44,878 bases of DNA, taken from assembly GCA_041686025.1 (NCBI GenBank), contig JAWLEP010000023.1, positions 1-44,878 on the forward strand, written 5' to 3'. The notes under the pieces were generated by a model. The model searched no databases. It worked only from the letters and a program-made list of their open reading frames with translations, and was not told the DNA's origin. Below are positions 3,839 through 37,662 of this stretch, in pieces (position 1 is the first letter of the stretch; every line of letters begins with the position of its first letter). The translations under genes and the position numbers were made by a program. Origin of the DNA: Candidatus Fermentibacteraceae bacterium. GTDB taxonomy: Bacteria > Fermentibacterota > Fermentibacteria > Fermentibacterales > JCC-6.

Positions 3839-5929
3839 TTGCCACAGAAAAGACCTGACCCGGGACGGATAGAGAGGCACCCGATTCTCTCCCCCTCCGA
3901 GGGTGAGAGGGTTTCCTTCACCTTCAACGGCCGCAGTCTGGAGGGGGTCGGAGGTGAGGCGGTGTCCTCGGCCCTGTTCGCCGCCGGGGTCCACGTCTTC
4001 GGCCACCATCACGCCGACAGCGGCCCGCAGGGCATCTTCTGCGCCAACGGCCAGTGCTCGCAGTGTACGCTGATCATCGACGGGGTCCCCAGGAAGAGCT
4101 GCATCGTTCCCCTGCACGAGGGCATGGAGGTCCGCAGCCTGGAGGGCCTGCCCCGTCTGGAGGACAGACCTCCCCCGGATCTCCGGCCCCCGGAGACCGT
4201 GGAGACCGACGTCCTGGTGCTGGGGGCCGGGCCCTCCGGCATGGCGGCCGCCATCGAGATGGGGCGGCAGGGCCTCTCGGTGATCGTGGTGGACGACAAG
4301 GACAGGCTGGGGGGCAAGCTGGTCCTGCAGACCCACAAGTTCTTCGGCTCCGTGGAGGACTGCAACGCCGGCACCCGGGGTATCAGGATCGCCGAGCTGC
4401 TGGCGGCCGAACTGGAGGAGCTTCCCTCGGTGGACGTCTGGCTGGAGAGCATCGCCCTGGCCGTGTACAGCGACGGCCTGGTGGGAATCCGCCGCCCCGC
4501 GGGATACTCGCTGGTTCGCCCGAAGGCCTTGCTGGTGACCACCGGCGCCCGGGAGAAGTCCCTCACCTTCCCCGGCAACACACTTCCCGGAGTCTACGGC
4601 GCCGGAGCCTTCCAGACCCTGGTGAACCGGGACATGGTGAGGGCGGCGGAGAGGATCTTCGTGGTGGGGGGCGGAAACGTGGGCCTGATAGGCGCCTACC
4701 ACGCCCTGCAGGCGGACATGACCGTAGTGGGGCTGGCAGAGGCCCTTGCGGAGTGCGGCGGCTACTACGTCCACGCCGACAAGATCCGCAGGCTGGGGGT
4801 TCCCGTATACACCCGGCATACGGTCCTGGCCGCCCACGGCACCGAGCACCTGGAGGCGGTGACCATAGCGGAGGTGGACGACTCCTTCACCCCCATAGCC
4901 GGCACCGAGAAGAGCTTCGCGGTGGACACACTGCTGGTGGCCGTGGGCCTGGAGCCGGTGAACGAGTTCGCCGAGAAGGCCCGAAGCTTCGGCATGAAGG
5001 TCCTCTCTGCGGGCGACGCCGAGGAGATAGCAGAGGCTTCAGCCGCCATGTTCAACGGGAGGATCGCCGGCCGGGAGCTGGCCTGCGAGCTGGGGGGTAC
5101 CGAGGCCGCCTGTCCCGCGGACTGGCACGAGAAGGCCGAGATACTCAAGAGCCCCGGGGGAGAGGTTCATCCGTACACGGTTCCCGACGACAGGGAGGGC
5201 GTATACCCGGTGATCCACTGCAACCAGGAGATCCCCTGCAACCCCTGCATGACCTCCTGCCCCCTGGACCTCATCGGAACCGAAGGTCACCCCATCATGG
5301 GCGTTCCCGAGTACTCCGGAGGCTGCTCCGGCTGCCGCCGGTGCGTGGCCATATGCCCGGGCCTCGCCATTACCCTGGTGGACTGGCGGAAGGATTCCGG
5401 AAGACCGCTGGTGACCGTTCCCTTCGAGCTGGGACAGTGGAGGCTGGAGGGCCATGACGGCCTTCCGGTGACCGACATGCACGGGGAGGTGCTGGGCACG
5501 GGTGGCCTTGTGGACGTCAGGCCTGCCGCCGGCTTCCCCCAGACCCTGATGCTCACCCTGGAGGTGGACCCGGAGGTCGCCTCCCGGGTGGCCGGGGTGC
5601 GAATACAGGACCCCTCGGACGTGGAGCCCGAGGCGCAGCCCCGGAAGCTTCCCCTGGCCGACGACGCGGTGGTCTGCCGCTGCGAGCGGGTCACCGCCGG
5701 CGAGATCAGGCGGCACCTGCGGGCCGGGGTGCGGGATCTCAACGAGCTGAAGGCTCTCACCAGGGCCGGCTTTGGAGCCTGCGGGGGAAAGACCTGCCGG
5801 GCCCTGATAGACCGGATATGTCGCGAGGAGGGGATCCCTACCGGGGAGATAGAGCCCATGACCGAGAGGCCGCTCTTTGCAGAGACCCAGCTGGGCTTCT
5901 TCTGCGGAAGTGGGGACGGCCGTGAGTAG
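3839..5929 (+). CDS. Fused flavo-iron-sulfur subunit of a dye-linked proline dehydrogenase / sarcosine oxidase-alpha-like complex
   Basis: N-terminal [2Fe-2S] (CANGQCSQC...SC); FAD Rossmann GAGPSG; second GGGNVG; ferredoxin motifs CNPCMTSCP and CSGCRRCVAICP; C-terminal BFD-like CRCE...CGGKTC. Confidence 0.85.
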   Translation: MPQKRPDPGRIERHPILSPSEGERVSFTFNGRSLEGVGGEAVSSALFAAGVHVFGHHHADSGPQGIFCANGQCSQCTLIIDGVPRKSCIVPLHEGMEVRSLEGLPRLEDRPPPDLRPPETVETDVLVLGAGPSGMAAAIEMGRQGLSVIVVDDKDRLGGKLVLQTHKFFGSVEDCNAGTRGIRIAELLAAELEELPSVDVWLESIALAVYSDGLVGIRRPAGYSLVRPKALLVTTGAREKSLTFPGNTLPGVYGAGAFQTLVNRDMVRAAERIFVVGGGNVGLIGAYHALQADMTVVGLAEALAECGGYYVHADKIRRLGVPVYTRHTVLAAHGTEHLEAVTIAEVDDSFTPIAGTEKSFAVDTLLVAVGLEPVNEFAEKARSFGMKVLSAGDAEEIAEASAAMFNGRIAGRELACELGGTEAACPADWHEKAEILKSPGGEVHPYTVPDDREGVYPVIHCNQEIPCNPCMTSCPLDLIGTEGHPIMGVPEYSGGCSGCRRCVAICPGLAITLVDWRKDSGRPLVTVPFELGQWRLEGHDGLPVTDMHGEVLGTGGLVDVRPAAGFPQTLMLTLEVDPEVASRVAGVRIQDPSDVEPEAQPRKLPLADDAVVCRCERVTAGEIRRHLRAGVRDLNELKALTRAGFGACGGKTCRALIDRICREEGIPTGEIEPMTERPLFAETQLGFFCGSGDGRE

Positions 5930-7073
5930 GGTCTGGGACGTGGTGGTGGTCGGCGCGGGCAGCGTGGGGACTCCCCTGGCCATGGAGCTGGCCGGCCGGG
6001 GGACCTCCGTACTGTGCATAGACCCCGCCGCCTCCGCGGGCCAGGGCAACAACAAGTGCGCCATTGGCGGAATACGGGCCACCCACAGCGAGCCGGCCAA
6101 GGTGTTCCTGGCCCTGCGCTCCCTGGAGGTCTTCCGGACCTGGGAGGAAACCTACGGCGACTCCATCGGCTGGAGGCAGGGGGGCTATTCCTACGTGGCC
6201 TACGACCCCGAGACCGCCGGGCTGCTTCGGGGCATGATCCCGGGCCAGCAGGAGGCGGGCCTGAACATCGACTGGCACGGCCCGGAGAGGATCGCCGAGC
6301 TGGTTCCCGGCATCAGCGGGGAGGGGCTCATCGGAGGCACCTACTCACCCGAGGACGGCAGCGCCAACCCCATGCAGAGCTGCTACGCCTTCTGCCGCCG
6401 GGCGCAGGCCCTGGGGGCGGAGTTCGCCTTCGGAGAGACCGTAACGGCCATCAACGTCCATGGCGGGCGGGTGATCTCCGTGGAGACGGACGCCGACACC
6501 TACGCCTGCGGGGCGGTGGTGAACTGCGCCGGCTCCTTCGGCCGGGAGGTGGGGGAGATGGCGGGCCTGGACCTGCCCGTCCACCCCGACAGCCACGAAG
6601 CGGGGATAACCGAGCCCGTGGAGATGTTCTTCGAGCCCATGGTGGTGGACATCCGCAGCGGGCCCGGCTCGGCCAACTACTACTTCTACCAGCACGACAC
6701 GGGCCAGGTGGTGTTCTGCATCACCCCCGACCCCCCGATACCGGGAACCGACGTCCGGGAGACCTCGGAGTTCCTTCCCATGGTCTCCTCCCGCATGGTG
6801 GACCTCTACCCCAGGCTGGCCAACCTCAAGGTCCGCCGCACCTGGCGCGGGTGCTACCCGCAGACCCCGGACGGCTCGCCCATACTGGGGCAGGCGGGGC
6901 CGGAGAACAGCTACATCGCCGTGGGCATGTGCGGCCAGGGCTACATGCTGGGCCCCGGGGTGGGCACGCTGATGGCCAGGCTGGTCACCGGCGGGGCCAC
7001 CCGGGAGGACCGGGAGGTCCTGGAGGCGCTATCTCCGCACCGCGACTTCGGAACGGAGGAGGCGCTCAAGTAG
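5922..7073 (+). CDS. FAD-dependent amino-acid oxidoreductase (DAO family; proline dehydrogenase/sarcosine oxidase beta-like)
   Basis: GAGSVG dinucleotide motif, DGSANP, TPDGSPILG, GMCGQGYMLGP. GTG 5922 overlaps the upstream stop (GTGAGTAG). Confidence 0.85.
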   Translation: MSRVWDVVVVGAGSVGTPLAMELAGRGTSVLCIDPAASAGQGNNKCAIGGIRATHSEPAKVFLALRSLEVFRTWEETYGDSIGWRQGGYSYVAYDPETAGLLRGMIPGQQEAGLNIDWHGPERIAELVPGISGEGLIGGTYSPEDGSANPMQSCYAFCRRAQALGAEFAFGETVTAINVHGGRVISVETDADTYACGAVVNCAGSFGREVGEMAGLDLPVHPDSHEAGITEPVEMFFEPMVVDIRSGPGSANYYFYQHDTGQVVFCITPDPPIPGTDVRETSEFLPMVSSRMVDLYPRLANLKVRRTWRGCYPQTPDGSPILGQAGPENSYIAVGMCGQGYMLGPGVGTLMARLVTGGATREDREVLEALSPHRDFGTEEALK

Positions 7074-7157
7074 TTGACTCTCTCGAACAGGTACGCGGCT
7101 GAAGACATTCTACGCAGCGCAGGCTGATCTCTCTGCACAAGGAACGGTGAGACTGAC

Positions 7158-8840
7158 ATGAGATACTTGCTCCTGATACTGGCGGCGGCTTCCCTGGGCA
7201 TGGCCGAGACATCGGTCTGCGGCACGGAAGAGCTTCTTCCCATCGGCTTTACCGAGGAGGAGCTGCAGAGGCTCGACGAGATAGGGATGTACTCCCCGGC
7301 GGCGACGGACCCGCCGCCCTCGGGCACCCGCAACCCCGGCGAGTTCGAGCCGGCCACCGGCGTCATGTTCCGCTGGCCCCTGGGCATTCCCTACGACCTC
7401 ATCGTGGACTTCTCCAACGAGGGCATGGTCTGGGTGATCTGCGAGAGCTACCAGCAGGGGGACGTGGAGTCGGCCTTCATCTCCGCCGGCGTGAACATGG
7501 ACAACGTGGACTACATACTGGCTCCCACCAACTCCATCTGGGTCCGCGACTACGGCCCCTGGTTCATCGCCCTTCCCGACGGCGATATCGCCATCTTCGA
7601 CTACGTCTACAACAGGCCGCGTCCCGACGACGACCAGATCCCCTGGGAGATAGGCGACCAGTGGGGCCTGGAGGTCTACGCCTCCGACATAGAGCACACC
7701 GGCGGCAACTACATGTCCGCCGGCTTCGACCAGTCCATGTCCACCGACATGGTCTACGAAGAGAATCCCCAGGGGGAGGACTGGGTGGACTCCCAGATGG
7801 AGCTGTACCTTGGGGTGACTGATTACGTGACAATGGAGGACCCCCAGGGCAGCTACATCGACCACATCGACTGCTGGGCCAAGATGCTCAGCCCCGACCG
7901 TCTGATGGTCCTGGAGGTGCCCCCGGGACATCCGGACTACACGGCCCTGGAATCCGCCGCCGAGATGCTTGAGCAGACGACAAGCCCCTACGGCACCGAC
8001 TGGCAGGTGTTCCGCGTCTACTCCGGGGGCACCGAGGGCTACACCAACAGCCTGATCAGCGAGGACCGGGTCTACATGCCCACCTGGAACACGTCCAACG
8101 ACTACCCCGCGATCATGGCTTACGAGGAGGCGCTGCCGGGCTACCAGGTGGACGGCTACTACTACAGCGGCTTCAGCAACACCGACGCCCTGCACTGCCG
8201 TACGCGCAACGCCATGGACGTGGAGATGCTCACCGTGTGGCACGTACCCGTGGACTCGGTGCAGCCGGCATCCCAGCCGGTGGAGATAGAGGCCCTGATG
8301 AGGCCCCATCCCGACAACAGCCTTGCCTCGCACCTTCTGCACTACCGCACCGGCACCTCCGGGCCCTTCAGCGAGGTGGACATGTCCGCCGCCGGCGACG
8401 ACATGTACACCGCTCAGGTCCCTGCCCAGACCGCCGGCACCACGGTGCAGTACTACGTCACCGCCTCCGACGACTCCGGCCGCGACGAGGAGAGCCCCCG
8501 CTTCGCGCCGGACACCTGGTTCCACGAGTACCAGACCTCCATGACCGGCGTTGCCGACCAGACCCGGTTGGCCCCCGGGGCATGGATAACCGACCCGACT
8601 CCCAACCCCTTCGCCGGCAGTGTGGCCCTGACGCTGGCTCTGGAGGAGGCCGGCAGGGCGGAGGCCGCGGTCTACGACCTTTCAGGCCGCATGGTTGCAC
8701 GGCTGGCCTCAGGCGAGATGCAGGCCGGCGCGCACCGGCTGCGCTGGACCCCGGAAAGCTCTGTACCCTCGGGCGTCTACGTGGTCCGCGTCAGCGCCGC
8801 CGGAAGCACCGCCACCCGCCGCGTCACCCTCCTCCACTAA
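7158..8840 (+). CDS. Secreted peptidylarginine deiminase (PPAD-type, PAD_porph) with Ig-like domain and T9SS/FlgD-type C-terminal sorting domain
   Basis: Signal peptide; WVRDY, YNRPRPDDD, TGGNYM, YIDHIDCW, YTNSLI, TDALHCRT; Ig-like VQYYVTASDDSGR; CTD PNPF...VYDLSGRMV...SGVYVVRV...RRVTLLH. Confidence 0.88.
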   Translation: MRYLLLILAAASLGMAETSVCGTEELLPIGFTEEELQRLDEIGMYSPAATDPPPSGTRNPGEFEPATGVMFRWPLGIPYDLIVDFSNEGMVWVICESYQQGDVESAFISAGVNMDNVDYILAPTNSIWVRDYGPWFIALPDGDIAIFDYVYNRPRPDDDQIPWEIGDQWGLEVYASDIEHTGGNYMSAGFDQSMSTDMVYEENPQGEDWVDSQMELYLGVTDYVTMEDPQGSYIDHIDCWAKMLSPDRLMVLEVPPGHPDYTALESAAEMLEQTTSPYGTDWQVFRVYSGGTEGYTNSLISEDRVYMPTWNTSNDYPAIMAYEEALPGYQVDGYYYSGFSNTDALHCRTRNAMDVEMLTVWHVPVDSVQPASQPVEIEALMRPHPDNSLASHLLHYRTGTSGPFSEVDMSAAGDDMYTAQVPAQTAGTTVQYYVTASDDSGRDEESPRFAPDTWFHEYQTSMTGVADQTRLAPGAWITDPTPNPFAGSVALTLALEEAGRAEAAVYDLSGRMVARLASGEMQAGAHRLRWTPESSVPSGVYVVRVSAAGSTATRRVTLLH

Positions 8841-8862
8841 CGGGGACGGAGTTTAAGTTCAT

Positions 8863-8899
8863 CAAGTTGGCTGGCGGTTTAATGCCGCCAGCCAACTTG
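8863..8899. terminator. Perfect 15-bp hairpin between convergent genes; likely bidirectional terminator
   Basis: CAAGTTGGCTGGCGG-TTTAATG-CCGCCAGCCAACTTG; no long U-tract. Confidence 0.6.
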
Positions 8900-8963
8900 C
8901 TTGATGCCCCTAGCCATCTGCAGAGCAATTACATAGCAATTCCCGACCTAAGGGACGTTCAAT

Positions 8964-26031: not shown

Positions 26032-27297
26032 ATGGACAGCAGCAGGTACAGCGATTTCCTCGATCTCAGGCCCCTGAACGTGCGCCTGGCCATGCCGGGA
26101 AGCAGGTGCGGCCTGGTCAGCGGAAGGGACATCGCCAGGACGGCCAGGGAGAACGAGGCCATCGTGCTGGCGGCCAACATCCGAAACCCCCTCAGCGCCC
26201 AGGGGATCTTCCGGGCCGCGAAGAAGGCGGACTCCTTCGTCCTGCTGGAGCTGGCCAAGTCCGAGAACGGATACACCGGCGTGCATTTTCACAACCTGCC
26301 CCAGTACGCCATGATGTACTCCAGCATGGTGGGCGACGGCTTCGTCTACGCTCTGCACATGGACCACTACGCGGTGAAGTGCGAGGAGGACCGCGACGAG
26401 GCGGTGTCCACCGTGCCCTGGGCCATCGGGCAGGGCTGGACCTCCGTGGCCATAGACGCCTCCCACAACCCGGACTATCCCAACCTCGTATACACCCGCG
26501 ACATAGGCATGCACATCCCGAACTACATCGGTCTGGAGGCCGAGGTGGGGGAGATCAAGGGCCCCGGCGAGCTCACCACGGTGGAGGAGGCCGACTACTT
26601 CGTGGGAGGCCTGAACAGCTGGGGCGTGTTCCCCGACTACCTGGCCATCTCCAACGGCTCCAAGCACGGCACCTATGACACCAGCAAGGGCGAGGCCGAG
26701 GGGATCGACCTCGAGAGGACGGCCGAGGTGGCGGAGACCATCGGCCGCTACGGCGCCGTCATCGCCCAGCACGGGATAAGCGGCACCCCACTGGACAAGG
26801 TGGGCCGCTTCCGGAAGTACGGCATAAACAAGGGCAACGTGGGCACCCTGTGGCAGAACCTGGTGTTCGGCCTGGAGGTGGACGAGGAGAGCGGCAACGC
26901 CATAATCGAGGACGGCTCCTACGTGAAGCGCCCCGACAAGGGCATCCCCGAGGAGCTGTGGAGGGAGATGGTGGAGTGGGCCGACTCCCAGGGCTACTCC
27001 CGGGCGTCGGGCAACTACAAGAAGGCCAACCTGCCCTTCCACCACCGGATAATGTCCCTGCCCGACGAGTACCGGTCCAGGATCGTGGACGAGACCGAGA
27101 GATGGGCCCTCCGCTTCTTCGAGAGCTTCGGCTCCACCGGGACGTCCACAAAGGTCATAGAGAGCATTCTGGAGAGGGGCGACTGGAACTCCATGCCCGA
27201 GCAGCGGATAGTTGCAGACAGGGCCCAGTGCGTTCCCGAGCGTGCCCCCGACTACGGCAGCGACGAGGAGTCGGAGGGCGAGGACTACTCCGACTAG
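26032..27297 (+). CDS. fba: Class II fructose-bisphosphate aldolase (long form)
   Basis: LHMDH, IDAS, EAEVGEI, NGSKHG, QHGISG, KGNVGT; AAGGAGG RBS. Confidence 0.85.
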   Translation: MDSSRYSDFLDLRPLNVRLAMPGSRCGLVSGRDIARTARENEAIVLAANIRNPLSAQGIFRAAKKADSFVLLELAKSENGYTGVHFHNLPQYAMMYSSMVGDGFVYALHMDHYAVKCEEDRDEAVSTVPWAIGQGWTSVAIDASHNPDYPNLVYTRDIGMHIPNYIGLEAEVGEIKGPGELTTVEEADYFVGGLNSWGVFPDYLAISNGSKHGTYDTSKGEAEGIDLERTAEVAETIGRYGAVIAQHGISGTPLDKVGRFRKYGINKGNVGTLWQNLVFGLEVDEESGNAIIEDGSYVKRPDKGIPEELWREMVEWADSQGYSRASGNYKKANLPFHHRIMSLPDEYRSRIVDETERWALRFFESFGSTGTSTKVIESILERGDWNSMPEQRIVADRAQCVPERAPDYGSDEESEGEDYSD

Positions 27298-27325
27298 CAG
27301 TCTCTGAAGAGGTGACACCGACCAC

Positions 27326-28624
27326 ATGCCCAGAACGCTGTTGAAGGATGTCAGGATACTGGACCCGGCCACGGCCAGCGACGCGGTGGGGCACATCGTG
27401 CTGGAGGACGGCCGCATCGACTCGGTGCAGACCGGAGATGCCCCGACGGGCTGCCCGCGGGAGATAGACGGCTCCGGCCAGTGGGTCTTCCCGGGCCTGG
27501 TGGACATGCACGTCCATCTCAGGCAGCCCGGGGGCGACGAAGCCGAGACCCTGGAGTCCGGCCTGCGGGCCGCCATCGCCGGCGGGGTCACCGCGGTGGG
27601 CATGATGCCCAACACCGACCCTCCCCTGGACAGCGAGGAGGTTCTGGCGCCGCTGCTGGAGAAGGCCGAAGACCTGGGGCTGGCCCGGGTCTGCCCCATA
27701 CCCTGCGTCTCCATGGGGAGGCAGGGCCGTGAGCCGGTGGACTACGAGGCCCTGCACGCCCTGGGCGCCACCGCCTTCAGCGACGACGGCAGCCCGGTCT
27801 GGAACGGGGCCCTTCTGCGGGAGGCCCTGCGCAGGACCTCGGCCTTCGGGGGGATGGTGGTTGAGCATCCGGAGCTGCCGTCCCTCACCCAGGGAGGCAG
27901 TCTGGACGAGGGTCCCGTCGCGGAGAAGCTGGAGGTGGGCGGCATCCCCTGCCAGGCGGAGACCGGCGACGTGGCCCGCTGCCTGGAGGTGGCCAGGGGT
28001 ACGGGAGGCAGGCTCCATCTCACCCACCTGTCATGCACCCGCAGCGTGGCCCTGGTGGACTCCTCCCGCTCGGAGGAGGCCGGCTTCAGGGCCACCTGCG
28101 ACGTCACCCCGCACCATCTTGCACTGAACAGCGAGGAGCCCCTGGCCGCCGGCCCCATGGCCAAGATGAACCCTCCCCTGAGGTCGGAGGAGATGCGCCA
28201 GGGGCTGGTGAGGCACGTGGCCAGGGGGAGGGTGGACTGCCTGGCCAGCGACCACGCCCCCCACGCATCCGCCCGGAAGAGCCTGCCCATGGCCCGGGCC
28301 GCCTTCGGCATAACGGGCCTGGAGACGCTGCTTCCCGTGTCCCTCGCCGTGCTGGGGGGCGAGGGCATGATGACGCCCCTGGCGGTGATATCCCTTCTCT
28401 GCACCGCTCCCGCCCGTCTGCTGGGGCTGGAGCCTCCCCGCCTGGAATCCGGGGCCCCGGCCAACCTGGTCCTCTTCGACCCCGACCGCGAGTACACCCT
28501 CTCCGATGTGGGCACCTTCTCCAAGTCCATGAACACCCCCTTCATGGGCAGGGTCCTCCACGGACGCGTGCGGGCGGTCTGGCGGGAGAGGCTGCTCTAC
28601 ATGGACGGCAGCTTTGTCGAGTAG
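27326..28624 (+). CDS. pyrC: Dihydroorotase (type I)
   Basis: DMHVHLR, MPNT, SDDG, EH, HLS, TPHHL, KMNPPLR, SDHAPH, FGITGLET, NTPF. Confidence 0.93.
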   Translation: MPRTLLKDVRILDPATASDAVGHIVLEDGRIDSVQTGDAPTGCPREIDGSGQWVFPGLVDMHVHLRQPGGDEAETLESGLRAAIAGGVTAVGMMPNTDPPLDSEEVLAPLLEKAEDLGLARVCPIPCVSMGRQGREPVDYEALHALGATAFSDDGSPVWNGALLREALRRTSAFGGMVVEHPELPSLTQGGSLDEGPVAEKLEVGGIPCQAETGDVARCLEVARGTGGRLHLTHLSCTRSVALVDSSRSEEAGFRATCDVTPHHLALNSEEPLAAGPMAKMNPPLRSEEMRQGLVRHVARGRVDCLASDHAPHASARKSLPMARAAFGITGLETLLPVSLAVLGGEGMMTPLAVISLLCTAPARLLGLEPPRLESGAPANLVLFDPDREYTLSDVGTFSKSMNTPFMGRVLHGRVRAVWRERLLYMDGSFVE

Positions 28625-30335
28625 GCCGGCCGCTGCGGTGCGCGCTCTGATGCTGGCCGCCGCGCTGGCGGGGCTTTCCTGCGCCTACTACAACACCTTC
28701 TACAACGCCAGGGAGAGCTACGAGGAGGCCCTGGAGCTGGCGGCGGAGAACCCCGAAGACCCCATGGCTTCGGAGGAGGACCTCCTGCAGGCGGCGATAG
28801 AGGGTGCCGGAAAGGTGCTGCGCGACTACAGCGACAGCCGGTGGGTGGACGACGCCCAGCTCCTCATGGGCGACGCAATGCTTCAGCTGGGACGCAGAAC
28901 GCTCACCGGCAGCGGCACCTCCAGGTTCCAGGAGGCGATGCGGGCCTACTCCTCGGTAATGGTGATGACCGAGGACAGGGAGAAGGTGGACCGCGCCGGC
29001 CTGGGAATGGGAATGGCCGCCATGGAGCTGGGCCGCTACGGGGACGCGGTGGCCTCCCTGGAGGAGGTCTCCCCGGAGGACGAGAAGATGTTCTTCCGGT
29101 CACGCCTGCTGCTGGCGGAGGCCCTGGTCACCGACGGAAGGTCGGAACGGGCGCTGTCCGTGCTGGACACGCTGCAGAGCCCGGACGACGACAGCCTTCG
29201 GGCAGAGCTGGTTCTGGCCAGGGGGAATGCCCTGTTGGGAGTGGGCCGGGCGGACAGTGCCGCCTCGGTCTGCCAGGAGGCCGCCGAGGTGTTCGGCAGG
29301 GGCGACGGGTACTTCCGGGCCATGCTCAAGGCTTCCGAGGCTTACATAGAGGCCGGAGAGCCCTCCCGGGCGGCCACGGTTCTGGAGCGGCTCCTGGCCG
29401 GGTACCGCTCCGACCTGGAGCTGGCCCAGATATCGCTTCTCCGGGGCAAGGCCAGGGAGATGGTGGGGGACACCAGCGCGGCGCTGGGCGCCTACCTCAA
29501 CGCTGCCGAGAAGGACTCCTACCGGCAGTTCGGGGCGGAGGGCCTCTACCGGAGAGCCATGCTTCTCGAGCGGCAGGACAGGAGGCTGGACGCCATGGAC
29601 GAGCTGGAGGAGCTTGCCGGCCGCAGGGGCGACTACCTCTGGATCAGGCTGGCGGAGAACAGGAAGTACGACCTGGAGCTGCTGCAGTCCTACCACGAGC
29701 GGGTGGAGGCGGAGAGCGGCCTGGAGCGCAACAGGTACAGGCTGATGATCGCGGAGAAGCGCCGGGAGCTCTACGGCCGGGGCGACTCCCTGGCCCTGCG
29801 GGAGCTGAGCCAGCTGGCAGACAGCGACCACCGGAGGATACGGTCCTACGCCAGGGCCGCCCTGGCCTCGGTTCTTCCCGCAGATTCCTCCCGGGCGCTG
29901 CTGCTCTCGGTAAGGGAGGAGGCCGACAGCAGCGACCTGGCCACCGTGATCGAGGACTCCCTGGGCCTCGCCCCGGGCCCGTCGGCCCTGGACAGGCCCT
30001 CCGCCGTCCTGGAAAGGGCCTGGGAGGAGATCGACCGCGGCGACTACCAGTCGGCCTGGGAGCGTCTGGACGCCCTGGTCGATTCCCCCTGGAGCTACGA
30101 TGCCAGGCCGGAGATACTGTGGGCCGCCTATGTGGCCGCCGAGGGCTCGCGGCAGGACGACGCCGTGGTGGAGGGCTACCTTCGGGAGCTTGCCGGGGAC
30201 TACCCCCTGACCGTGGAGGGAATCGAGGCCGAGCAGAGGCTCTACGGCCTGGAGGTGGAGGAGGGCGACGACGGAGACGGCGATGGTGACGGTGACGGTG
30301 ATGGAGACGGCGACGGAGACGGAGACGGGGAGTAG
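28614..30335 (+). CDS. TPR-repeat lipoprotein (SprE/PorW- or BamD-like) with Gly-Asp tail
   Basis: Lipobox LSC followed by AYYNTFYNA; SRWVDDA; multiple TPR-like helices; C-terminal (GD)9. Confidence 0.78.
   Translation: MSSRPAAAVRALMLAAALAGLSCAYYNTFYNARESYEEALELAAENPEDPMASEEDLLQAAIEGAGKVLRDYSDSRWVDDAQLLMGDAMLQLGRRTLTGSGTSRFQEAMRAYSSVMVMTEDREKVDRAGLGMGMAAMELGRYGDAVASLEEVSPEDEKMFFRSRLLLAEALVTDGRSERALSVLDTLQSPDDDSLRAELVLARGNALLGVGRADSAASVCQEAAEVFGRGDGYFRAMLKASEAYIEAGEPSRAATVLERLLAGYRSDLELAQISLLRGKAREMVGDTSAALGAYLNAAEKDSYRQFGAEGLYRRAMLLERQDRRLDAMDELEELAGRRGDYLWIRLAENRKYDLELLQSYHERVEAESGLERNRYRLMIAEKRRELYGRGDSLALRELSQLADSDHRRIRSYARAALASVLPADSSRALLLSVREEADSSDLATVIEDSLGLAPGPSALDRPSAVLERAWEEIDRGDYQSAWERLDALVDSPWSYDARPEILWAAYVAAEGSRQDDAVVEGYLRELAGDYPLTVEGIEAEQRLYGLEVEEGDDGDGDGDGDGDGDGDGDGDGE
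30264..30332 (+). repeat. In-frame hexamer repeat encoding GDD(GD)9GE
   Basis: GGN-GAY units with mixed synonymous codons. Confidence 0.85.
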
Positions 30336-30337
30336 GG

Positions 30338-31117
30338 TTGGCTGAGCCGGTGCCGGTGGATGCAGCCGCCGAGCTGGTGGAGGCGGAGGCCCCGCTCCCC
30401 TGTGTGATCCGTCAGACCTACCGCCTTCCCTCCCTGGCCCGGACGGCGGTCCCCGGGCAGTTCGTGCAGATCGAGGTGCAGGAGCAGGGGCCCTTCCCCA
30501 TGACCCGCCGTCCCCTTACCGTAAGCGACGTCGACCCTTCCGCGGGGACCTTCACCGTGGTCTTCGAGGAGGTGGGAGGCGGCACCCGGGCCCTGGGACG
30601 CTGCGGGCGGGGCGAGTCGCGCCGGGTACTGGGACCGCTGGGCCGGGGCTACCAGACGCTTCCGGGGGACTGGCTCCTCATCGGCGGGGGCATGGGGGCC
30701 GCCGGCTTCCCGCTGCTTTCCCGGAGGGTGGATGTCCGCAGGACGCTGCTGGGGGCCAGGGACGCCGACCACCTGCTGGAGGCCGGCTGCCCGAACGTCA
30801 GCTGCGCCACGGAGGACGGGAGCCGGGGCTCCTGCGGCCTGGTCACGGCGCTCTGCGAAGGGGTGGACTGGGAGGAGTACGACCACGTGGCGCTGTGCGG
30901 GCCGCTGGCCATGATGGAGGCGGTGGCCCGGCTGATTCCCCCGGGCAGGCTGGACCGGGTGCAGGTGAGCACCGAGAGCCGCATGGCCTGCGGCTGGGGA
31001 GTGTGCGAGGGCTGCGCCATCCCCGCCGTTGACGGCTACCTGAAGTGCTGCACCGACGGGCCGGTGATCGCCGCGGACCGCATCGACTGGAACGCCTGGA
31101 GGGAGACGCTGCCTTGA
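30338..31117 (+). CDS. pyrK: Dihydroorotate dehydrogenase electron transfer subunit
   Basis: PGQF, RRPLT, GPLGRG, GGGMG, TEDGS, CGP, MACGWGVCEGC...CTDGP. Confidence 0.92.
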   Translation: MAEPVPVDAAAELVEAEAPLPCVIRQTYRLPSLARTAVPGQFVQIEVQEQGPFPMTRRPLTVSDVDPSAGTFTVVFEEVGGGTRALGRCGRGESRRVLGPLGRGYQTLPGDWLLIGGGMGAAGFPLLSRRVDVRRTLLGARDADHLLEAGCPNVSCATEDGSRGSCGLVTALCEGVDWEEYDHVALCGPLAMMEAVARLIPPGRLDRVQVSTESRMACGWGVCEGCAIPAVDGYLKCCTDGPVIAADRIDWNAWRETLP

Positions 31118-31986
31118 GAAGGGTCGACTCCCTGCGCTGCAGCCTCTGGGGCCGGACCTTCGGCTCCCCCGTCATGCTGGCCTCGGGCACCGCCGGCTTC
31201 GGCCTGGAGCTGCACCGGATGGGATGCCTGGAGGGGGTGGCCGCCGTGGTCTCCAAGGGCACTACCCTCCGGCCCCGGGCCGGCAACCCGCCTCCCAGGG
31301 TCTGGGAGACCCGGATGGGCCTGCTGAACTCCATCGGCCTGGCCAACCCCGGGGTCCACCACATCGTCCGCGAGGTGCTGCCGGAGGCCGACAGCCTGCC
31401 CTGCCCGGTGATAGTGAACGTCTCCGGGGATACCGAGGAGGAGTTCGCCGAGGTGGTGTCGCTGCTGGAGGGGTCGCCGGTGCCCTTCGGCTACGAGGTC
31501 AACGTCTCCTGTCCCAACGTGGCCAGGGGAGGGATGTCCTTCGGGGCCGACCCCCTGGTGGTGGAGCGGGTGTCCGCCCTGGTCCGCAGCGCCTCCTCCC
31601 GCCCCTTCTCTGTCAAGCTCACCCCCAACGCCGGTGACATGGCGGAGACCGCCATGGCCGCCTGCGCCGGGGGTGCCGATGCCATTACGGTATGCAACAC
31701 GTTCCTGGGCATGAAGGTGGACTGGCGCACCGGCAGGCCCGCCATGCGCCGCGGGGTGGCCGGGTACACCTCCCCCGCGCTGCTGCCCCTGGTGGTGGCC
31801 AGCGTACACGCCGTGTCCGAGGCGGTGGGGGTCCCGGTGCTGGCCTCGGGGGGCGTCTCCCGGGCGGAGGACCTGCTGGAGCTGATGGCCGCCGGCGCGG
31901 AGATGGTGCAGGTGGGATCACTGGTACTCCGCAGGCCCTGCGCCGCGGGGGAGCTGCTGCGCGACGCCGGGGAGCTGCTGCGGTGA
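31114..31986 (+). CDS. pyrD: Dihydroorotate dehydrogenase B catalytic subunit
   Basis: ASGT, GNPPPR, NSIGLANPG, NVSCPN, KLTPN, NT, SGG. Start TTG 31114 (TTGA overlap). Confidence 0.93.
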   Translation: MRRVDSLRCSLWGRTFGSPVMLASGTAGFGLELHRMGCLEGVAAVVSKGTTLRPRAGNPPPRVWETRMGLLNSIGLANPGVHHIVREVLPEADSLPCPVIVNVSGDTEEEFAEVVSLLEGSPVPFGYEVNVSCPNVARGGMSFGADPLVVERVSALVRSASSRPFSVKLTPNAGDMAETAMAACAGGADAITVCNTFLGMKVDWRTGRPAMRRGVAGYTSPALLPLVVASVHAVSEAVGVPVLASGGVSRAEDLLELMAAGAEMVQVGSLVLRRPCAAGELLRDAGELLR

Positions 31987-32399
31987 GAGGCCTTCCGGCC
32001 CTCCTGGCCGCGGCCCTTTTCCTCCTCGGCGTCTCCTGCCTCCGGCCCCGGCCCGTCTACAGGGGGGGCGGCACCGGACCGGTGGCGGCGATTCCGGGCT
32101 ACACCCAGAGGGGGGTTGCCTCCTACTACGGGGAGGGCTTCCAGGGCCGCCTGACGGCCAATGGGGAGACCTTCGACACCCGCCGGCTCACCTGTGCCCA
32201 CCGGACGCTGCCCTTCGACACCATGGTACGGGTGAGGAACATGGCCAACGACAAGGAGGTGACGGTCAGGGTCAACGACCGGGGCCCCTACGTGGGCGGC
32301 AGGATCATCGACCTGACCGAGGCAGCCGCGGAGAGAATCGACATGAAGAAGTCCGGCGTGGCCAGGGTGGAGCTCACGGTGGTGTCCTCCCCGGACTGA
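31983..32399 (+). CDS. rlpA: RlpA family lytic transglycosylase lipoprotein (DPBB only, no SPOR domain)
   Basis: Lipobox VSC; GVASYYG, TANGE, AHRTLPF, VNDRGP, RIIDL. Start GTG 31983 (GTGA overlap). Confidence 0.9.
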   Translation: MRGLPALLAAALFLLGVSCLRPRPVYRGGGTGPVAAIPGYTQRGVASYYGEGFQGRLTANGETFDTRRLTCAHRTLPFDTMVRVRNMANDKEVTVRVNDRGPYVGGRIIDLTEAAAERIDMKKSGVARVELTVVSSPD

Positions 32400-32432
32400 G
32401 CCGGACAGCGGACAAAGCCGAATGGAGGACCG

Positions 32433-33131
32433 ATGCCGACACGTCTGTACGTGGCCCTGACCACCGAGCTGGGAGACGGCCTTCTCCCCCTGGCCGAGGA
32501 GCTGGCGGGAATCGAGGGGGCCGGAGTGAAGGTGGGCCTGGAGCTCTACCTCAGCCGGGGGACGGAGATGGTCCGCCGCCTGGCATCCCTGGGCCTGCCG
32601 GTGTTTCTCGACCTCAAGTTCTGCGACATCCCCCATACGGTGGCGGGAGCCGTCCGGGCGGTGGCCGGCATGGAGCCGGCGGTGGTGAACGTCCACGCCA
32701 CCGGCGGCCGGGAGATGATGCGGGCGGCTGCGGAAGCGGCTGACGGTCGTTTCAGCGTCATCGCCGTCACTGTGCTCACCAGCCTGGGCCGCGGCGATCT
32801 GAGCGCCATGTCGATAGGGCTCCCCGCCGAGGACCTGGTGGTCCGTCTGGCCGAGTCCGCATCCGCGGCGGGGCTGGACGGCGTGGTCTGCTCGCCCCGG
32901 GAGGCGGCCGCGGTCCGCCGGGCCTGCGGAGACGACTTCCTGGTGATAACCCCTGGAGTGCGGCCGGCCGGACACCGCCGCGACGACCAGAAGCGGGTGG
33001 CTACCCCCGCCGAGGCCATGGCCGCCGGGGCGTCCGCCCTGGTTGTGGGCAGGCCGGTGACCAGGGCCGACTCCCCTGCGGACGCGGCCCGGGCGATACT
33101 GCAAGAGGCTGCCGGGGCCTTGCCCCGCTAG
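32433..33131 (+). CDS. pyrF: Orotidine-5'-phosphate decarboxylase
   Basis: KVG, FLDLKFCDIPHT, VTVLTS, TPGVRP, DDQKR, VVGRP. Confidence 0.95.
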   Translation: MPTRLYVALTTELGDGLLPLAEELAGIEGAGVKVGLELYLSRGTEMVRRLASLGLPVFLDLKFCDIPHTVAGAVRAVAGMEPAVVNVHATGGREMMRAAAEAADGRFSVIAVTVLTSLGRGDLSAMSIGLPAEDLVVRLAESASAAGLDGVVCSPREAAAVRRACGDDFLVITPGVRPAGHRRDDQKRVATPAEAMAAGASALVVGRPVTRADSPADAARAILQEAAGALPR

Positions 33132-35323: not shown

Positions 35324-36382
35324 ATGGCTCAGTCGTCAGCCTACGAGGTCAGGCACAAGGGCAGGATCTACAGGGCACCGGACCGGGAGACGCTGGAAAC
35401 CTGGGCCCGGGAGCTCCGCATATCCGGCGAGGACCAGATGCGGCGCGCCGGCGGCGAGGACTGGCACCCGGTCTCCGACGACGAGGGGCTGGCAGAGCTG
35501 CTCTCGCCGGAGAGCTGGTGGCACGTGACCATCGGAGACCGGTCCTACACCGCCCCGGACTTCGACACGGTGGTTCTCTGGGCCAGGGAGGGCAGGCTCA
35601 CCGTGGGGACGGAGATTGAGGGCCCCAGGACCCCTCCCGGGGGTGTGCTGGCCAGCGGGCTGCCCAGGCTTGCCCCCTACCTGAGAGAGCTGCCCGACGA
35701 GGATACCGATGATGTCCCCGTGATCCGCATAGACGGCAGGGAGTACCATCCCGGCCAGACCGACACGGTCAGGAGATGGATCCGGGAGTCCAGGATTCCC
35801 CCGGAGGCGGAGATATTGCTCTCCGGCGGGGAATGGGAGCCCATCGGCGAATGCGGCCTCTTCGAGCCCGAGCTCTGGCCGGAGGGGGCCTGGGGCCAGC
35901 CTCCCGAGGACGAGGAGCCCGAGGAGCCCGAAGCGCCGGAGGAGCCGGCGAAGGCCGCCCCCGAGGCGGAGGATAGGGACGAAGGCCGGCAGGAGGACGA
36001 GCCGGACGAGGCCGGCGAGGAGGGCGAAAGCGCCGAGGCGGAGCCGGATGCCGGGGGCGACGAAGAGGACGAAGAGGAGCTTGCGCCCACCGGAGACGAG
36101 AGCGGCGAGCCCTACTCCATAGACACGCTCCAGGGCCGCCTGGAGGCGGCGACTCCCCAGACGGTGAAGCGCATGCTCAAGAGGGGCCAGATCCGCACCT
36201 TCGACAGGGTGGTCCACCCCGACCTTCCCGACGGCGAGTGCTCGGTGGCCGAGTTCCTGGAGGCCGAGGGTCTGTCCCGCTCCTACCTGTGGGTCTGGAT
36301 AGTGATCGCGGTCCTTCTGGCGGCGGCCGCCGTGATATTCTTCGACCCCTTCAGCCTGGGGATACTCCAGGGCGGAGCATGA
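35324..36382 (+). CDS. Tail-anchored protein with four GYF_2/DUF4339-like repeats and an acidic linker
   Basis: Repeats of Y/W-x-V/I...G-R-x-Y...T-V/L-x-x-W-x-R-E-x-R-I/L; long E/D/P/A linker; C-terminal TM; ATGA coupling to pdp. Confidence 0.72.
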   Translation: MAQSSAYEVRHKGRIYRAPDRETLETWARELRISGEDQMRRAGGEDWHPVSDDEGLAELLSPESWWHVTIGDRSYTAPDFDTVVLWAREGRLTVGTEIEGPRTPPGGVLASGLPRLAPYLRELPDEDTDDVPVIRIDGREYHPGQTDTVRRWIRESRIPPEAEILLSGGEWEPIGECGLFEPELWPEGAWGQPPEDEEPEEPEAPEEPAKAAPEAEDRDEGRQEDEPDEAGEEGESAEAEPDAGGDEEDEEELAPTGDESGEPYSIDTLQGRLEAATPQTVKRMLKRGQIRTFDRVVHPDLPDGECSVAEFLEAEGLSRSYLWVWIVIAVLLAAAAVIFFDPFSLGILQGGA

Positions 36383-37662
36383 AGGTAACCGATCTGATAG
36401 CGGCCAAGCGCGACGGGCGGGAGGTCCCGAGGGGGGACCTCTACGAGTTGGCCGCCGGTGTGGCCGAAGGCCGGGTGGCCGACTACCAGGCCGCAGCCTT
36501 CCTCATGGCGGCCTACATCAGGGGCCTCTCCCGGGCGGAGACCGTGGCCCTCACCGCCGCCATGCGGGACAGCGGCAGCTCGCTGGAGTGGGGCGACGGC
36601 CCCCCCCTGGCCGACAAGCACAGCACCGGAGGGGTGGGCGACAAGGTCTCCATAGTCCTGGCCCCCCTGGCCGCCGCCTGCGGCCTCCGGGTCCCCATGG
36701 TCAGCGGCAGGAGCCTGGGGCATACCGGCGGCACGCTGGACAAGCTGGAATCCATACCGGGGATGAGGGTGGACCTGACGCTTCGGGAGTTCGCCGCGCA
36801 GGTGAACGACCTGGGGGTGTGCATGATGGGCCAGACCGGTGAGATGGCCCCCGCCGACCGTGAGCTGTACGCCCTGCGGGACGCCACCTCCACGGTGACC
36901 TCCATTCCCCTGATCTGCGCCAGCATACTGAGCAAGAAGCTGGCGGAGTCCACCGACGTGCTGGTCTTCGACGTGAAGTGCGGCGACGGCGCCTTCGTCA
37001 GCGGCCTCGATGACGCCCGCAAGCTGGGCCGTACGCTGGTGGAGATAGCCGGGGAGTTCGGATGCCGGTCCAGCGCCCTTCTCACCTCCATGGACTACCC
37101 GCTGGGCAGGATGGTGGGGAACGCCCTGGAGGTGGACGAGTGCCTGGCCCTGCTGGAGGGGGGAGGCCCGGCGGCTCTTCGAAGCCTCACGGTCCGTCTC
37201 GCCGCCGGGATGGTGGAGCTGGCCGGAGCGGCCCAGGGCCCGGAGGAGGCCGTCGACCTCTGCACATCCAGGCTGGACGACGGGGCGGCCATGGAGGTAT
37301 TCCGGCGCATGGTGCAGGCACAGGGGGGAAGCCTGGAGAGCTTCCGGTCCCGGAAACCCGCCCCGGTGAGGCTGGAGGTCAGGGCCGGACGCTCCGGGCT
37401 GCTGGCCGGCCCCGCCGCCCGCGAGGTGGGAGAGGCGGTCCGCGAGCTGGGAGGCGGACGCTACTCCACGGACGATTCCATCGACCACAGGGTGGGATGG
37501 GAGTCCCTGGTGGAGCCGGGAACCGGGGTCTCCGCAGGGGAACCTGTGGGTCTGGTCCACGCCGCCTGCGCCGAAGACGCCGAGAGGGCCTCGGAGCGGA
37601 TCGGCGGGGCCATGGTCTGGGACGCGCAGCCGCCGGATGACCTGGTGCTGGAGGTTCTGTGA
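36379..37662 (+). CDS. pdp: Pyrimidine-nucleoside / thymidine phosphorylase
   Basis: KRDG, DYQ, DKHSTGGVGDK, SGRSLGHTGGTLDKLESIPG, APAD, LRD, SILSKK, DVK. Start re-called to ATG 36379. Confidence 0.94.
   Translation: MKVTDLIAAKRDGREVPRGDLYELAAGVAEGRVADYQAAAFLMAAYIRGLSRAETVALTAAMRDSGSSLEWGDGPPLADKHSTGGVGDKVSIVLAPLAAACGLRVPMVSGRSLGHTGGTLDKLESIPGMRVDLTLREFAAQVNDLGVCMMGQTGEMAPADRELYALRDATSTVTSIPLICASILSKKLAESTDVLVFDVKCGDGAFVSGLDDARKLGRTLVEIAGEFGCRSSALLTSMDYPLGRMVGNALEVDECLALLEGGGPAALRSLTVRLAAGMVELAGAAQGPEEAVDLCTSRLDDGAAMEVFRRMVQAQGGSLESFRSRKPAPVRLEVRAGRSGLLAGPAAREVGEAVRELGGGRYSTDDSIDHRVGWESLVEPGTGVSAGEPVGLVHAACAEDAERASERIGGAMVWDAQPPDDLVLEVL

Follow-up and report, generated by a model that had tools for sequence, protein, structure and literature searches.

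Here, we describe a gene for a secreted peptidylarginine deiminase of the Porphyromonas gingivalis type (PPAD) in a genome of the phylum Fermentibacterota. The gene (P0001) runs from ATG to TAA at positions 7158..8840 on the forward strand of a 44,878-nucleotide stretch, hereafter the window, from Candidatus Fermentibacteraceae bacterium (assembly GCA_041686025.1, contig JAWLEP010000023.1), and encodes 560 amino acids. By sequence, domain order, residue equivalence and phylogenetic placement, its product is a PPAD-type deiminase, and the gene, far from being a rare outlier, is near-core in its phylum. The point of interest is the complete architecture together with the kept substrate clamp, near-core in an environmental phylum and found in well over 100 other clusters; a single such gene would be unsurprising after a homology search, and the value lies in the breadth of the family and the retention of the clamp. 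The chemistry of extracellular C-terminal citrullination is thus likely to be widespread in environmental bacteria.

Papers from 2015 to 2026 present PPAD as an enzyme found only in P. gingivalis or in a small number of Porphyromonas species (PMC4487231, PMC4893104, PMC6147916, PMC13686182). The original prediction for this gene, made from the DNA letters alone, likewise took the activity to be usually described as Porphyromonas-specific. Several papers bear that out, but Cummings et al. consider pPAD genes more widespread than thought (PMC8826395).

Domain layout, active site and placement

The original prediction read the 560 residues as a signal peptide, a deiminase domain, an Ig-like domain and a type IX secretion system (T9SS)-type C-terminal domain (CTD), and all four parts were recovered, by hydropathy, PF04371, alignment with PPAD and TIGR04183, respectively. 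A predicted Sec signal peptide covers residues 1 to about 16 (7158..7205; all features are on the forward strand unless noted), with the cleavage site placed by eye. This call is based on the hydropathy of the N-terminus (Kyte-Doolittle 9-mer mean 2.7; a value of 2.0 is reached in 112 of 120 homologues), and residues 2-15 form a hydrophobic helix in the structural model. Residues ~17-45 (7206..7292), where model confidence is low, are a probable propeptide by their position relative to mature PPAD, the start of which is equivalent to residue 45 in the structural alignment; the role is drawn from what is reported for PPAD (PMC4487231). A motif, LPxx[LFM][TS]xxE, occurs in this region in 107 of 120 close homologues. 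The catalytic domain, a five-fold alpha/beta-propeller (pentein), spans residues ~46-356 (7293..8225) according to PF04371, Foldseek and VIA-align, with the Pfam PAD_porph model (PF04371) matching residues 84-350 at 77.8 bits (cut-off 25). It is followed by an immunoglobulin superfamily (IgSF) domain at residues ~357-462 (8226..8543), aligned with that of PPAD in both sequence and fold, and by a T9SS type A C-terminal sorting domain at residues 482-556 (8601..8825; TIGR04183, 33.4 bits against a cut-off of 23). [quoted passage not shown] In length (560 versus 556 amino acids) and in signal-propeptide-pentein-IgSF-CTD order, the protein resembles PPAD (PDB 4YT9, 4YTB, 4YTG, 5AK7, 5AK8, 6I0X); unlike PPAD, it has a longer conserved propeptide motif, and no Rgp orthologue was identified in its host.

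BLASTP comparison with P. gingivalis PPAD yielded 33% identity across 540 columns, Ig domain and CTD included. The reference sequence used matches PDB chain 4yt9_A, and a cluster 99% identical to it is named P. gingivalis PPAD. In a sequence search of PDB, the top five matches were all PPAD (best E 5e-84, residues 50-452, comprising the catalytic and Ig domains); next came 1xkn, of the agmatine-deiminase type, at E 6e-10, with others of that type worse. The five PPAD motifs quoted in the original prediction (YNRPRPNDD, YINHVDCWGK, YTNSLI, TDALHCRT and VEYYISAADNSGR) are indeed present in 4yt9_A and the PPAD sequence, and the counterparts given for the deiminase (YNRPRPDDD, YIDHIDCWAK, YTNSLI, TDALHCRT and the fifth quoted motif) all occur in its translation.

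PPAD is reported to use the triad C351-H236-N297, the guanidinium binders D130 and D238 and a carboxylate clamp of R152, R154 and Y233 (PMC4487231, PMC4893104). R152 is indispensable, R154 touches the preceding carbonyl, the choice of peptides over free arginine being ascribed to it (PMC4487231), and Y233 with R152 blocks C-terminally extended substrates (PMC4487231, PMC4893104). At the key positions of PPAD, the deiminase has W128, D131, R153, R155, T181, G183, Y233, H236, D238, C239, N297 and C347, so that every PPAD residue whose mutation is reported in these papers to have abolished or cut activity (D130, R152, R154, G182, H236, D238, C239, N297, C351) is kept, as are W127, T180 and Y233. 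In a gap-free alignment, R153 and R155 of the NRPRP motif (7611..7625) correspond to R152 and R154, which form the carboxylate and carbonyl clamp, and neither of them varies in any of 120 close homologues. The YIDHIDC segment (7854..7874) holds Y233, the Tyr of the Michaelis loop, the catalytic H236, D238 and the gatekeeper C239 (roles from PMC4487231); N297, the third member of the Cys-His-Asn triad, is aligned at 8046..8048, and the catalytic nucleophile C347, equivalent to PPAD C351, at 8196..8198. The two Arg residues and the Tyr are therefore kept, as claimed, except that the Tyr lies three residues before the catalytic His (Y233/H236) rather than adjacent to it. The loop before this His reads GSYID in the deiminase versus GEYIN in PPAD, and PPAD H196 is replaced by Asp.

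Agmatine deiminases of the AguA/AgDI type (TIGR03380; PDB 2JER, 3HVM, 1XKN, 6B2W) have the pentein fold, PF04371 and the W/D/H/D/N/C core in common with the deiminase, but are only ~20% identical to it, lack R152/R154/Y233, carry Glu at position 180 and, in the solved structures, have no IgSF domain. Seven controls of this type were taken from plasmid records (two named aguA, four labelled 'agmatine deiminase family' and one unannotated). None of the seven carries the clamp, in agreement with the original prediction; all share the five catalytic residues and have Gly or Ala instead of R152, Thr instead of Y233 and Glu instead of T180. The TIGR03380 model for agmatine deiminase scored 29.3 bits on the deiminase, against a cut-off of 381.8, and 44 bits on PPAD itself. 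Because both proteins fall far under the cut-off, 'agmatine deiminase family', the label of most homologues in the databases, is to be regarded as a default name.

An AlphaFold2 model, built on a 120-sequence alignment (mean predicted local distance difference test score 89.1), was superposed on PPAD as the original prediction had proposed. Foldseek placed seven PPAD chains first (best E 6.6e-48, root mean square deviation 1.4 A, TM-score 0.95 by target length), followed by 1xkn at 3e-22. In VIA-align, 6i0x_A aligned over 414 residues at 1.2 A (Z 53.9) and 1xkn over 309 residues at 2.2 A (Z 36.1), while human PAD1 reached Z 21.7 with 10% identity. Model residues 45-461 superpose on PPAD chain residues 44-463, amounting to 414-416 residues over both domains at 1.2-1.3 A, and in the predicted model, which spans both domains, the IgSF domain lies behind the catalytic domain as it does in PPAD. 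The backbone fit of 1.2-1.4 A across the two programs, along with the gap-free alignment of R153, R155 and Y233, upholds the equivalence of these residues to the PPAD clamp.

For phylogenetic placement, a quick IQ-TREE analysis (LG+G4, with support from the Shimodaira-Hasegawa-like approximate likelihood ratio test, SH-aLRT, only) was run on 100 catalytic domains, left after removal of 16 near-redundant rows from 116 selected; the 45 cluster representatives had been picked at random out of 146. The deiminase falls within a Fermentibacterota clade, the sister of which is a group containing Edwardsbacteria, and this clade lies in a larger one of 74 rows that includes PPAD (SH-aLRT 96). Nine agmatine-deiminase rows are set apart by a long branch (SH-aLRT 99), at a tree distance from the deiminase of 3.3-3.7 versus 1.6 to PPAD. 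In approximately unbiased (AU) tests on a 38-row subset, forcing the deiminase's clade together with AguA-type enzymes (p 2e-37) or with secreted agmatine deiminases (p 1e-5) was rejected in both cases. Thus, in the phylogeny with PPAD and AguA that had been suggested as a check, neither the tree nor the AU tests place the protein within the agmatine deiminases.

Spread in the phylum and the wider family

The nearest named homologues of the deiminase come from Aegiribacteria, Fermentibacter and Sabulitectum. Orthologues were found in 59 of the 70 genomes of the phylum (43/46 of the high-quality ones; 13/14 genera), 50 of them near full length and 9 in pieces, with 89% identity within the same genus and mostly 57-69% elsewhere in the phylum. 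Recent transfer or contamination was ruled out, given the occurrence of orthologues in 13/14 genera and a base composition like that of the neighbouring genes (GC content 0.66, and 0.90 at third codon positions; genome GC 0.669). [quoted passage not shown]

With PPAD as the query, 4167 of 6636 candidates passed an E-value of 0.001. Among the best 120 of these 4167, six are 55-99% identical to PPAD and the other 114 are 49-55% identical, and all eight key residues are kept in 107; the named taxa among the PPAD matches listed are Bacteroidales, Bacteroidota, Lentimicrobium and Cloacimonadota. A PPAD search of 1.84 billion cluster representatives returned 538 that reach E 1e-30. The best 150 of these all score at least 336 bits; 149 of them were alignable, and 137 of these keep all eight residues. 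The deiminase scores 286 bits against PPAD in a separate search and, with at least 150 representatives above that score, is a rather distant member within a large family.

The loop corresponding to PPAD 231-235 is most commonly NTYID in the cluster representatives (39/149); in the best 120 PPAD matches, GTYID occurs 53 times, NTYID 49 times and the reference form GEYIN once. NTYID is a published natural variant of P. gingivalis (PDB 6I0X; PMC13201384), and its frequency among the representatives suggests that this variant may resemble the usual state of the family. Three sequences from clusters named for P. gulae (P0125, P0127, P0128) are 55-57% identical to PPAD, form a long branch (0.69) beside it and have an unusual composition; these are possibly a second, diverged PPAD copy in P. 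gulae.

Homologues lacking the Tyr and a clade of paralogues branch outside the 74-row PPAD clade. The paralogue P0122 (G000:C72, L056:4791-6683, forward strand), with a likely start ~70 codons further in, is laid out in the same signal-catalytic-Ig-CTD order, and its catalytic residues are intact, but a longer insert, DGYPWIPGGPY, stands in place of NRPRP, and Gly in place of Y233; this type is full-length in 9/70 genomes and forms its own clade (SH-aLRT 100). Another class, found in 10 of 26 loci (L021, L023-L031; Ignavibacteriaceae, Zixiibacteriota, LCP-89, Eisenbacteria and others), keeps R152 and a second Arg and has G-I-H-H in place of Y-I-D-H. Since the Tyr of PPAD blocks C-terminally extended substrates, the Tyr-less class might accept other substrates. 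Two further candidate specificity classes are thereby outlined, one with the Arg pair and no Tyr and one with neither. Secreted, CTD-like-tailed proteins of the true agmatine-deiminase type occur in 3/70 genomes, and a very divergent pentein protein in a fourth (L100-L103; G051, G052, G040, G038). A third PF04371 match in the genome studied is weak, partial and below the family cut-off, with similar C-terminal-only matches in a few relatives, and may mark a further divergent pentein gene. PF19420 (DDAH/CtlX-like hydrolases) had no match at 1e-10 in any of the 70 genomes.

Proposed function, alternatives and origin

We consider it probable that the product is an exported enzyme which passes through Sec and a T9SS-like translocon, loses its propeptide and CTD, and turns C-terminal arginine of peptides into citrulline and ammonia. 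By analogy with PPAD, Sec export would be followed by CTD-directed passage through the SprA/PorV translocon and removal of the CTD and propeptide. In the active site, D131 and D238 would hold the guanidinium group, C347, helped by N297, would attack it to form a thiouronium intermediate, and H236 would serve as the general acid/base; R153, R155 and Y233 would grip the terminal carboxylate and the preceding carbonyl, excluding internal arginines. More tentatively, at a little under an even chance, the enzyme may work after the cell's secreted proteases in the fermentation of protein, removing positive charge at peptide ends.

Export to the cell surface is likely, judging from the gene content of the genome. 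SprA (1883 amino acids) scores 460.8 bits against a cut-off of 200; a PorV-family gene scores 253.7 bits (cut-off 90), under the strict cut-off of NF033710; several PorU-like genes reach 297-418 bits, just under the NF033707 cut-off of 420. Among 12,683 frames, 90 CTD-like matches were found and 89 frames end in a CTD. This T9SS-like kit outside the Bacteroidota (L053:5316-19881, L055:5215-10866, L057:4297-12622) comprises SprA, a PorV-family gene, two clustered PorU-like genes, an M6-like cargo and one further protein that matches SprA weakly. The genome also has 20 matches to C25 (gingipain-family) peptidases, 18 of which were aligned, all with His and Cys.

The genome encodes ornithine transcarbamylase (OTC) and carbamate kinase, and lacks any match to PF02274 (the ArcA family) or ArgG and any CarB match over the cut-off. 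The same pattern holds across the phylum, with OTC in 61/70 genomes, carbamate kinase in 67/70, ArgG in 3/70 and a full-length ArcA-family protein in 4/70; ten genomes have weak, short PF02274 matches only. The transcarbamylase scores as OTC (423, cut-off 281) and not as putrescine transcarbamylase (286, cut-off 500), and AguB is over the cut-off in 0/70 genomes. A search of this genome for pyruvoyl arginine decarboxylase, leaving the pyridoxal phosphate type aside, found none. In Thermococcus kodakarensis, the OTC and carbamate kinase pattern without ArcA is filled by the arginine synthetase ArcE (PMC11032458, PMC13260591), which gains ATP from free L-arginine and rejects Ala-Arg (PMC11032458). 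An ArcE-like gene (L076:3087-4415, reverse strand, G000:C77) is present in 69/70 genomes of the phylum at ~70-94% identity where full-length. Its identification draws on sequence motifs and on neighbour names ('cyclic 2,3-diphosphoglycerate synthase', 'putative GTPase') fitting PMC11032458, with no curated family naming the gene. With OTC, carbamate kinase and an ArcE-like gene present and ArcA, ArgG and CarB missing, the gene set matches that of the T. kodakarensis pathway and predicts, by analogy, that the phylum would obtain carbamoyl phosphate from arginine as that archaeon does. OTC, carbamate kinase and the ArcE-like gene also distinguish the genome from the PPAD system, and ArcE itself is a P-loop enzyme unrelated to the deiminase, with free L-arginine as its substrate.

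The idea that the deiminase fills a hole in the arginine deiminase pathway is weakened by the ArcE-like gene in 69/70 genomes, the presence of which means that an exported deiminase is not needed to start arginine catabolism. It was demoted to that of a side inlet, in which the citrulline product would later enter OTC and carbamate kinase beside the cytoplasmic ArcE-like enzyme.

Several points weigh against an exported enzyme specific for C-terminal peptide arginine that serves protein fermentation. The enzyme is described here from sequence and model, no assay of members outside Porphyromonas was found in the literature, and the residue equivalence is one of alignment and backbone fit, not of side-chain positions. 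Because the R152/Y233 clamp binds a carboxylate, free L-arginine also fits it, and PPAD turns over free arginine too (PMC4893104, PMC7847538). A purely nutritional role is argued against by the ATP gained through ArcE, since deiminating outside the cell forfeits that energy, and the gene does not adjoin those for OTC or carbamate kinase. No Arg-specific protease was identified in the genome, the S1 Asp of the C25 proteins not being alignable; the similarity of these proteins to RgpB is remote (one matches at E 5e-9, another not at all), and clostripain-family genes, present in 9/70 genomes of the phylum, are absent from this one. Searches for GldL, GldM and GldN (TIGR03513, TIGR03517, PF19841), which had no positive control, gave no match in the 94.75% complete genome. 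Finally, the AU test allowed the whole agmatine-deiminase branch to stand beside the deiminase's clade (p 0.32), so the root of the family can be moved, and also allowed that clade to join the paralogues (p 0.147). Membership of the PPAD-like family is firm, given the rejection of both agmatine groupings, but with these alternatives allowed the branching order inside the family is not.

The strongest alternative keeps the chemistry and changes its purpose, with the enzyme modifying the cell's own processed surface proteins or disarming cationic peptides instead of feeding metabolism. This may be the case, although we would not favour it. In P. gingivalis, PPAD has effects on surface proteins, biofilm and the production of vesicles (PMC7847538), the 89 CTD-ending frames and 20 C25 matches are consistent with such a role, almost the whole phylum carries the gene (59/70) and ArcE renders a metabolic role unnecessary; the amino-acid-oxidase-like genes conserved upstream fit catabolism instead, though gene order shared among kin is weak evidence. 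A different question, independent of the substrate, is whether the enzyme acts in the periplasm after peptide uptake across the outer membrane, with the GldL/M/N motor lacking. We hold this to be unlikely: the missing matches to the three motor models speak for it, but those searches matched no control genome either and therefore do not demonstrate absence, while SprA, the PorV-family gene and several PorU-like genes are present and 89 frames share the CTD.

Somewhat less probable still is an exported deiminase with free L-arginine or small N-acyl arginines as its real substrate, supplying citrulline and ammonia. The Arg/Tyr clamp binds a carboxylate (PMC4487231), and in P. gingivalis 381 the arginine deiminase activity is due entirely to PPAD, which also sets the levels of free arginine (PMC7847538). 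The genome, for lack of PF02274, ArgG and CarB, would depend on arginine breakdown for carbamoyl phosphate, and the failure to identify an Arg-specific protease points the same way. Against this, R155, at the position credited with selecting peptides, does not vary in any of the 120 homologues, and nearly all genomes of the phylum have the ArcE-like enzyme to use free arginine with a gain of ATP. A secreted agmatine deiminase, as most homologues are named, is highly improbable despite the true secreted, CTD-bearing proteins of that type in 3/70 genomes and a family root that may adjoin the deiminase's clade, considering the default nature of those names, the two Args and Tyr where agmatine deiminases have Gly or Ala, Trp and Thr, the loss of Glu180, the AU rejections and no AguB over the cut-off in any of the 70 genomes, as well as OTC rather than putrescine transcarbamylase and no pyruvoyl arginine decarboxylase in this genome.

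We incline to the view that C-terminal citrullination is an old, host-independent trait of anaerobic fermenters of the Fibrobacterota-Chlorobiota-Bacteroidota (FCB) group, that Porphyromonas inherited a finished enzyme, that at least two further specificity classes exist, and that peptides would be citrullinated outside the cell in anoxic sediments and digesters. Under this view, PPAD would be one twig among several hundred 50%-identity clusters, and the enzyme would have been inherited complete because the deiminase, Ig and CTD parts were already joined and the clamp already in place. This differs from the published proposal of a transferred single-domain agmatine deiminase later fused to two new domains (PMC4487231). 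Closest to our observations, a 'pPAD/AgD-type' tree (Fig. S4 of PMC8826395) has Lentimicrobium saccharophilum, Cloacimonas acidaminovorans, Caldithrix abyssi and others, apparently unassayed, among its leaves; these too are PPAD relatives outside Porphyromonas, and Lentimicrobium and Cloacimonadota are among the close PPAD matches listed here. Unlike the present analysis, the available portions of that paper neither examine the carboxylate clamp nor separate these proteins from agmatine deiminases, and they include no member of the Fermentibacterota. For Cloacimonadota, the accessible text of PMC8542988 mentions a C25 peptidase and no deiminase. Our literature search, which left subscription journals and other supplements mostly outside, found no clamp study or enzyme assay outside Porphyromonas, and nothing on Fermentibacter deiminases or on T9SS or deiminases in the phylum. 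If the enzyme is active as predicted, the native, host-free job of PPAD could be studied in organisms that do no harm, the R-x-R plus Tyr signature would correct a common misannotation, and Porphyromonas-only claims about C-terminally citrullinated peptides would need to be rechecked against other anaerobes.

Gene neighbourhood and flanking features

Upstream of the deiminase gene and in the same direction lie genes for a SoxA-like (3839..5929) and a SoxB/DAO-like flavoprotein (5877..7073), the latter ending 84 nt before the deiminase; the pair is given here as context. The best PDB match of the SoxB-like gene is 1y56_B (E 4e-51), and 1y56_A matches the SoxA-like gene. We take 1Y56 to be the dye-linked proline dehydrogenase of Pyrococcus, which would fit ornithine and proline catabolism. 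Of the 14 loci of the phylum in which 1 kb or more of DNA is available upstream, 12 have the pair there, which is weak evidence of linkage because these kin are not independent.

A Shine-Dalgarno-like site, GGTGA (7146..7150), lies 7 nt 5' of the ATG, with its function suggested by sequence. Between the deiminase gene and a convergent EamA gene is a long, near-perfect hairpin with no U-tail (8862..8900, no strand assigned; z -5.7, with 0 of 200 shuffles folding equally well), a probable terminator; a promoter and terminator scan found nothing exceeding shuffled sequences. Between 0.05 and 0.21 of the gene's words are present in seven RNA runs, and one run contains two contigs identical to parts of its 3' half; as these matches are contigs, patchy and come with no silent control, no conclusion on transcription or habitat is drawn from them.

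The mature deiminase (residues 46-462) is strongly acidic, with a net charge of -53, compared with a median of -34 in 100 close homologues and -10 in PPAD; such acidity is often met in salt-adapted proteins. Elsewhere in the window, genes for an amidohydrolase, a PyrK-like protein, PyrD, PyrF and a pyrimidine nucleoside phosphorylase lie at 26032-33131 and 36238-37662, and the pyrimidine synthesis to which the pyr genes belong requires carbamoyl phosphate.

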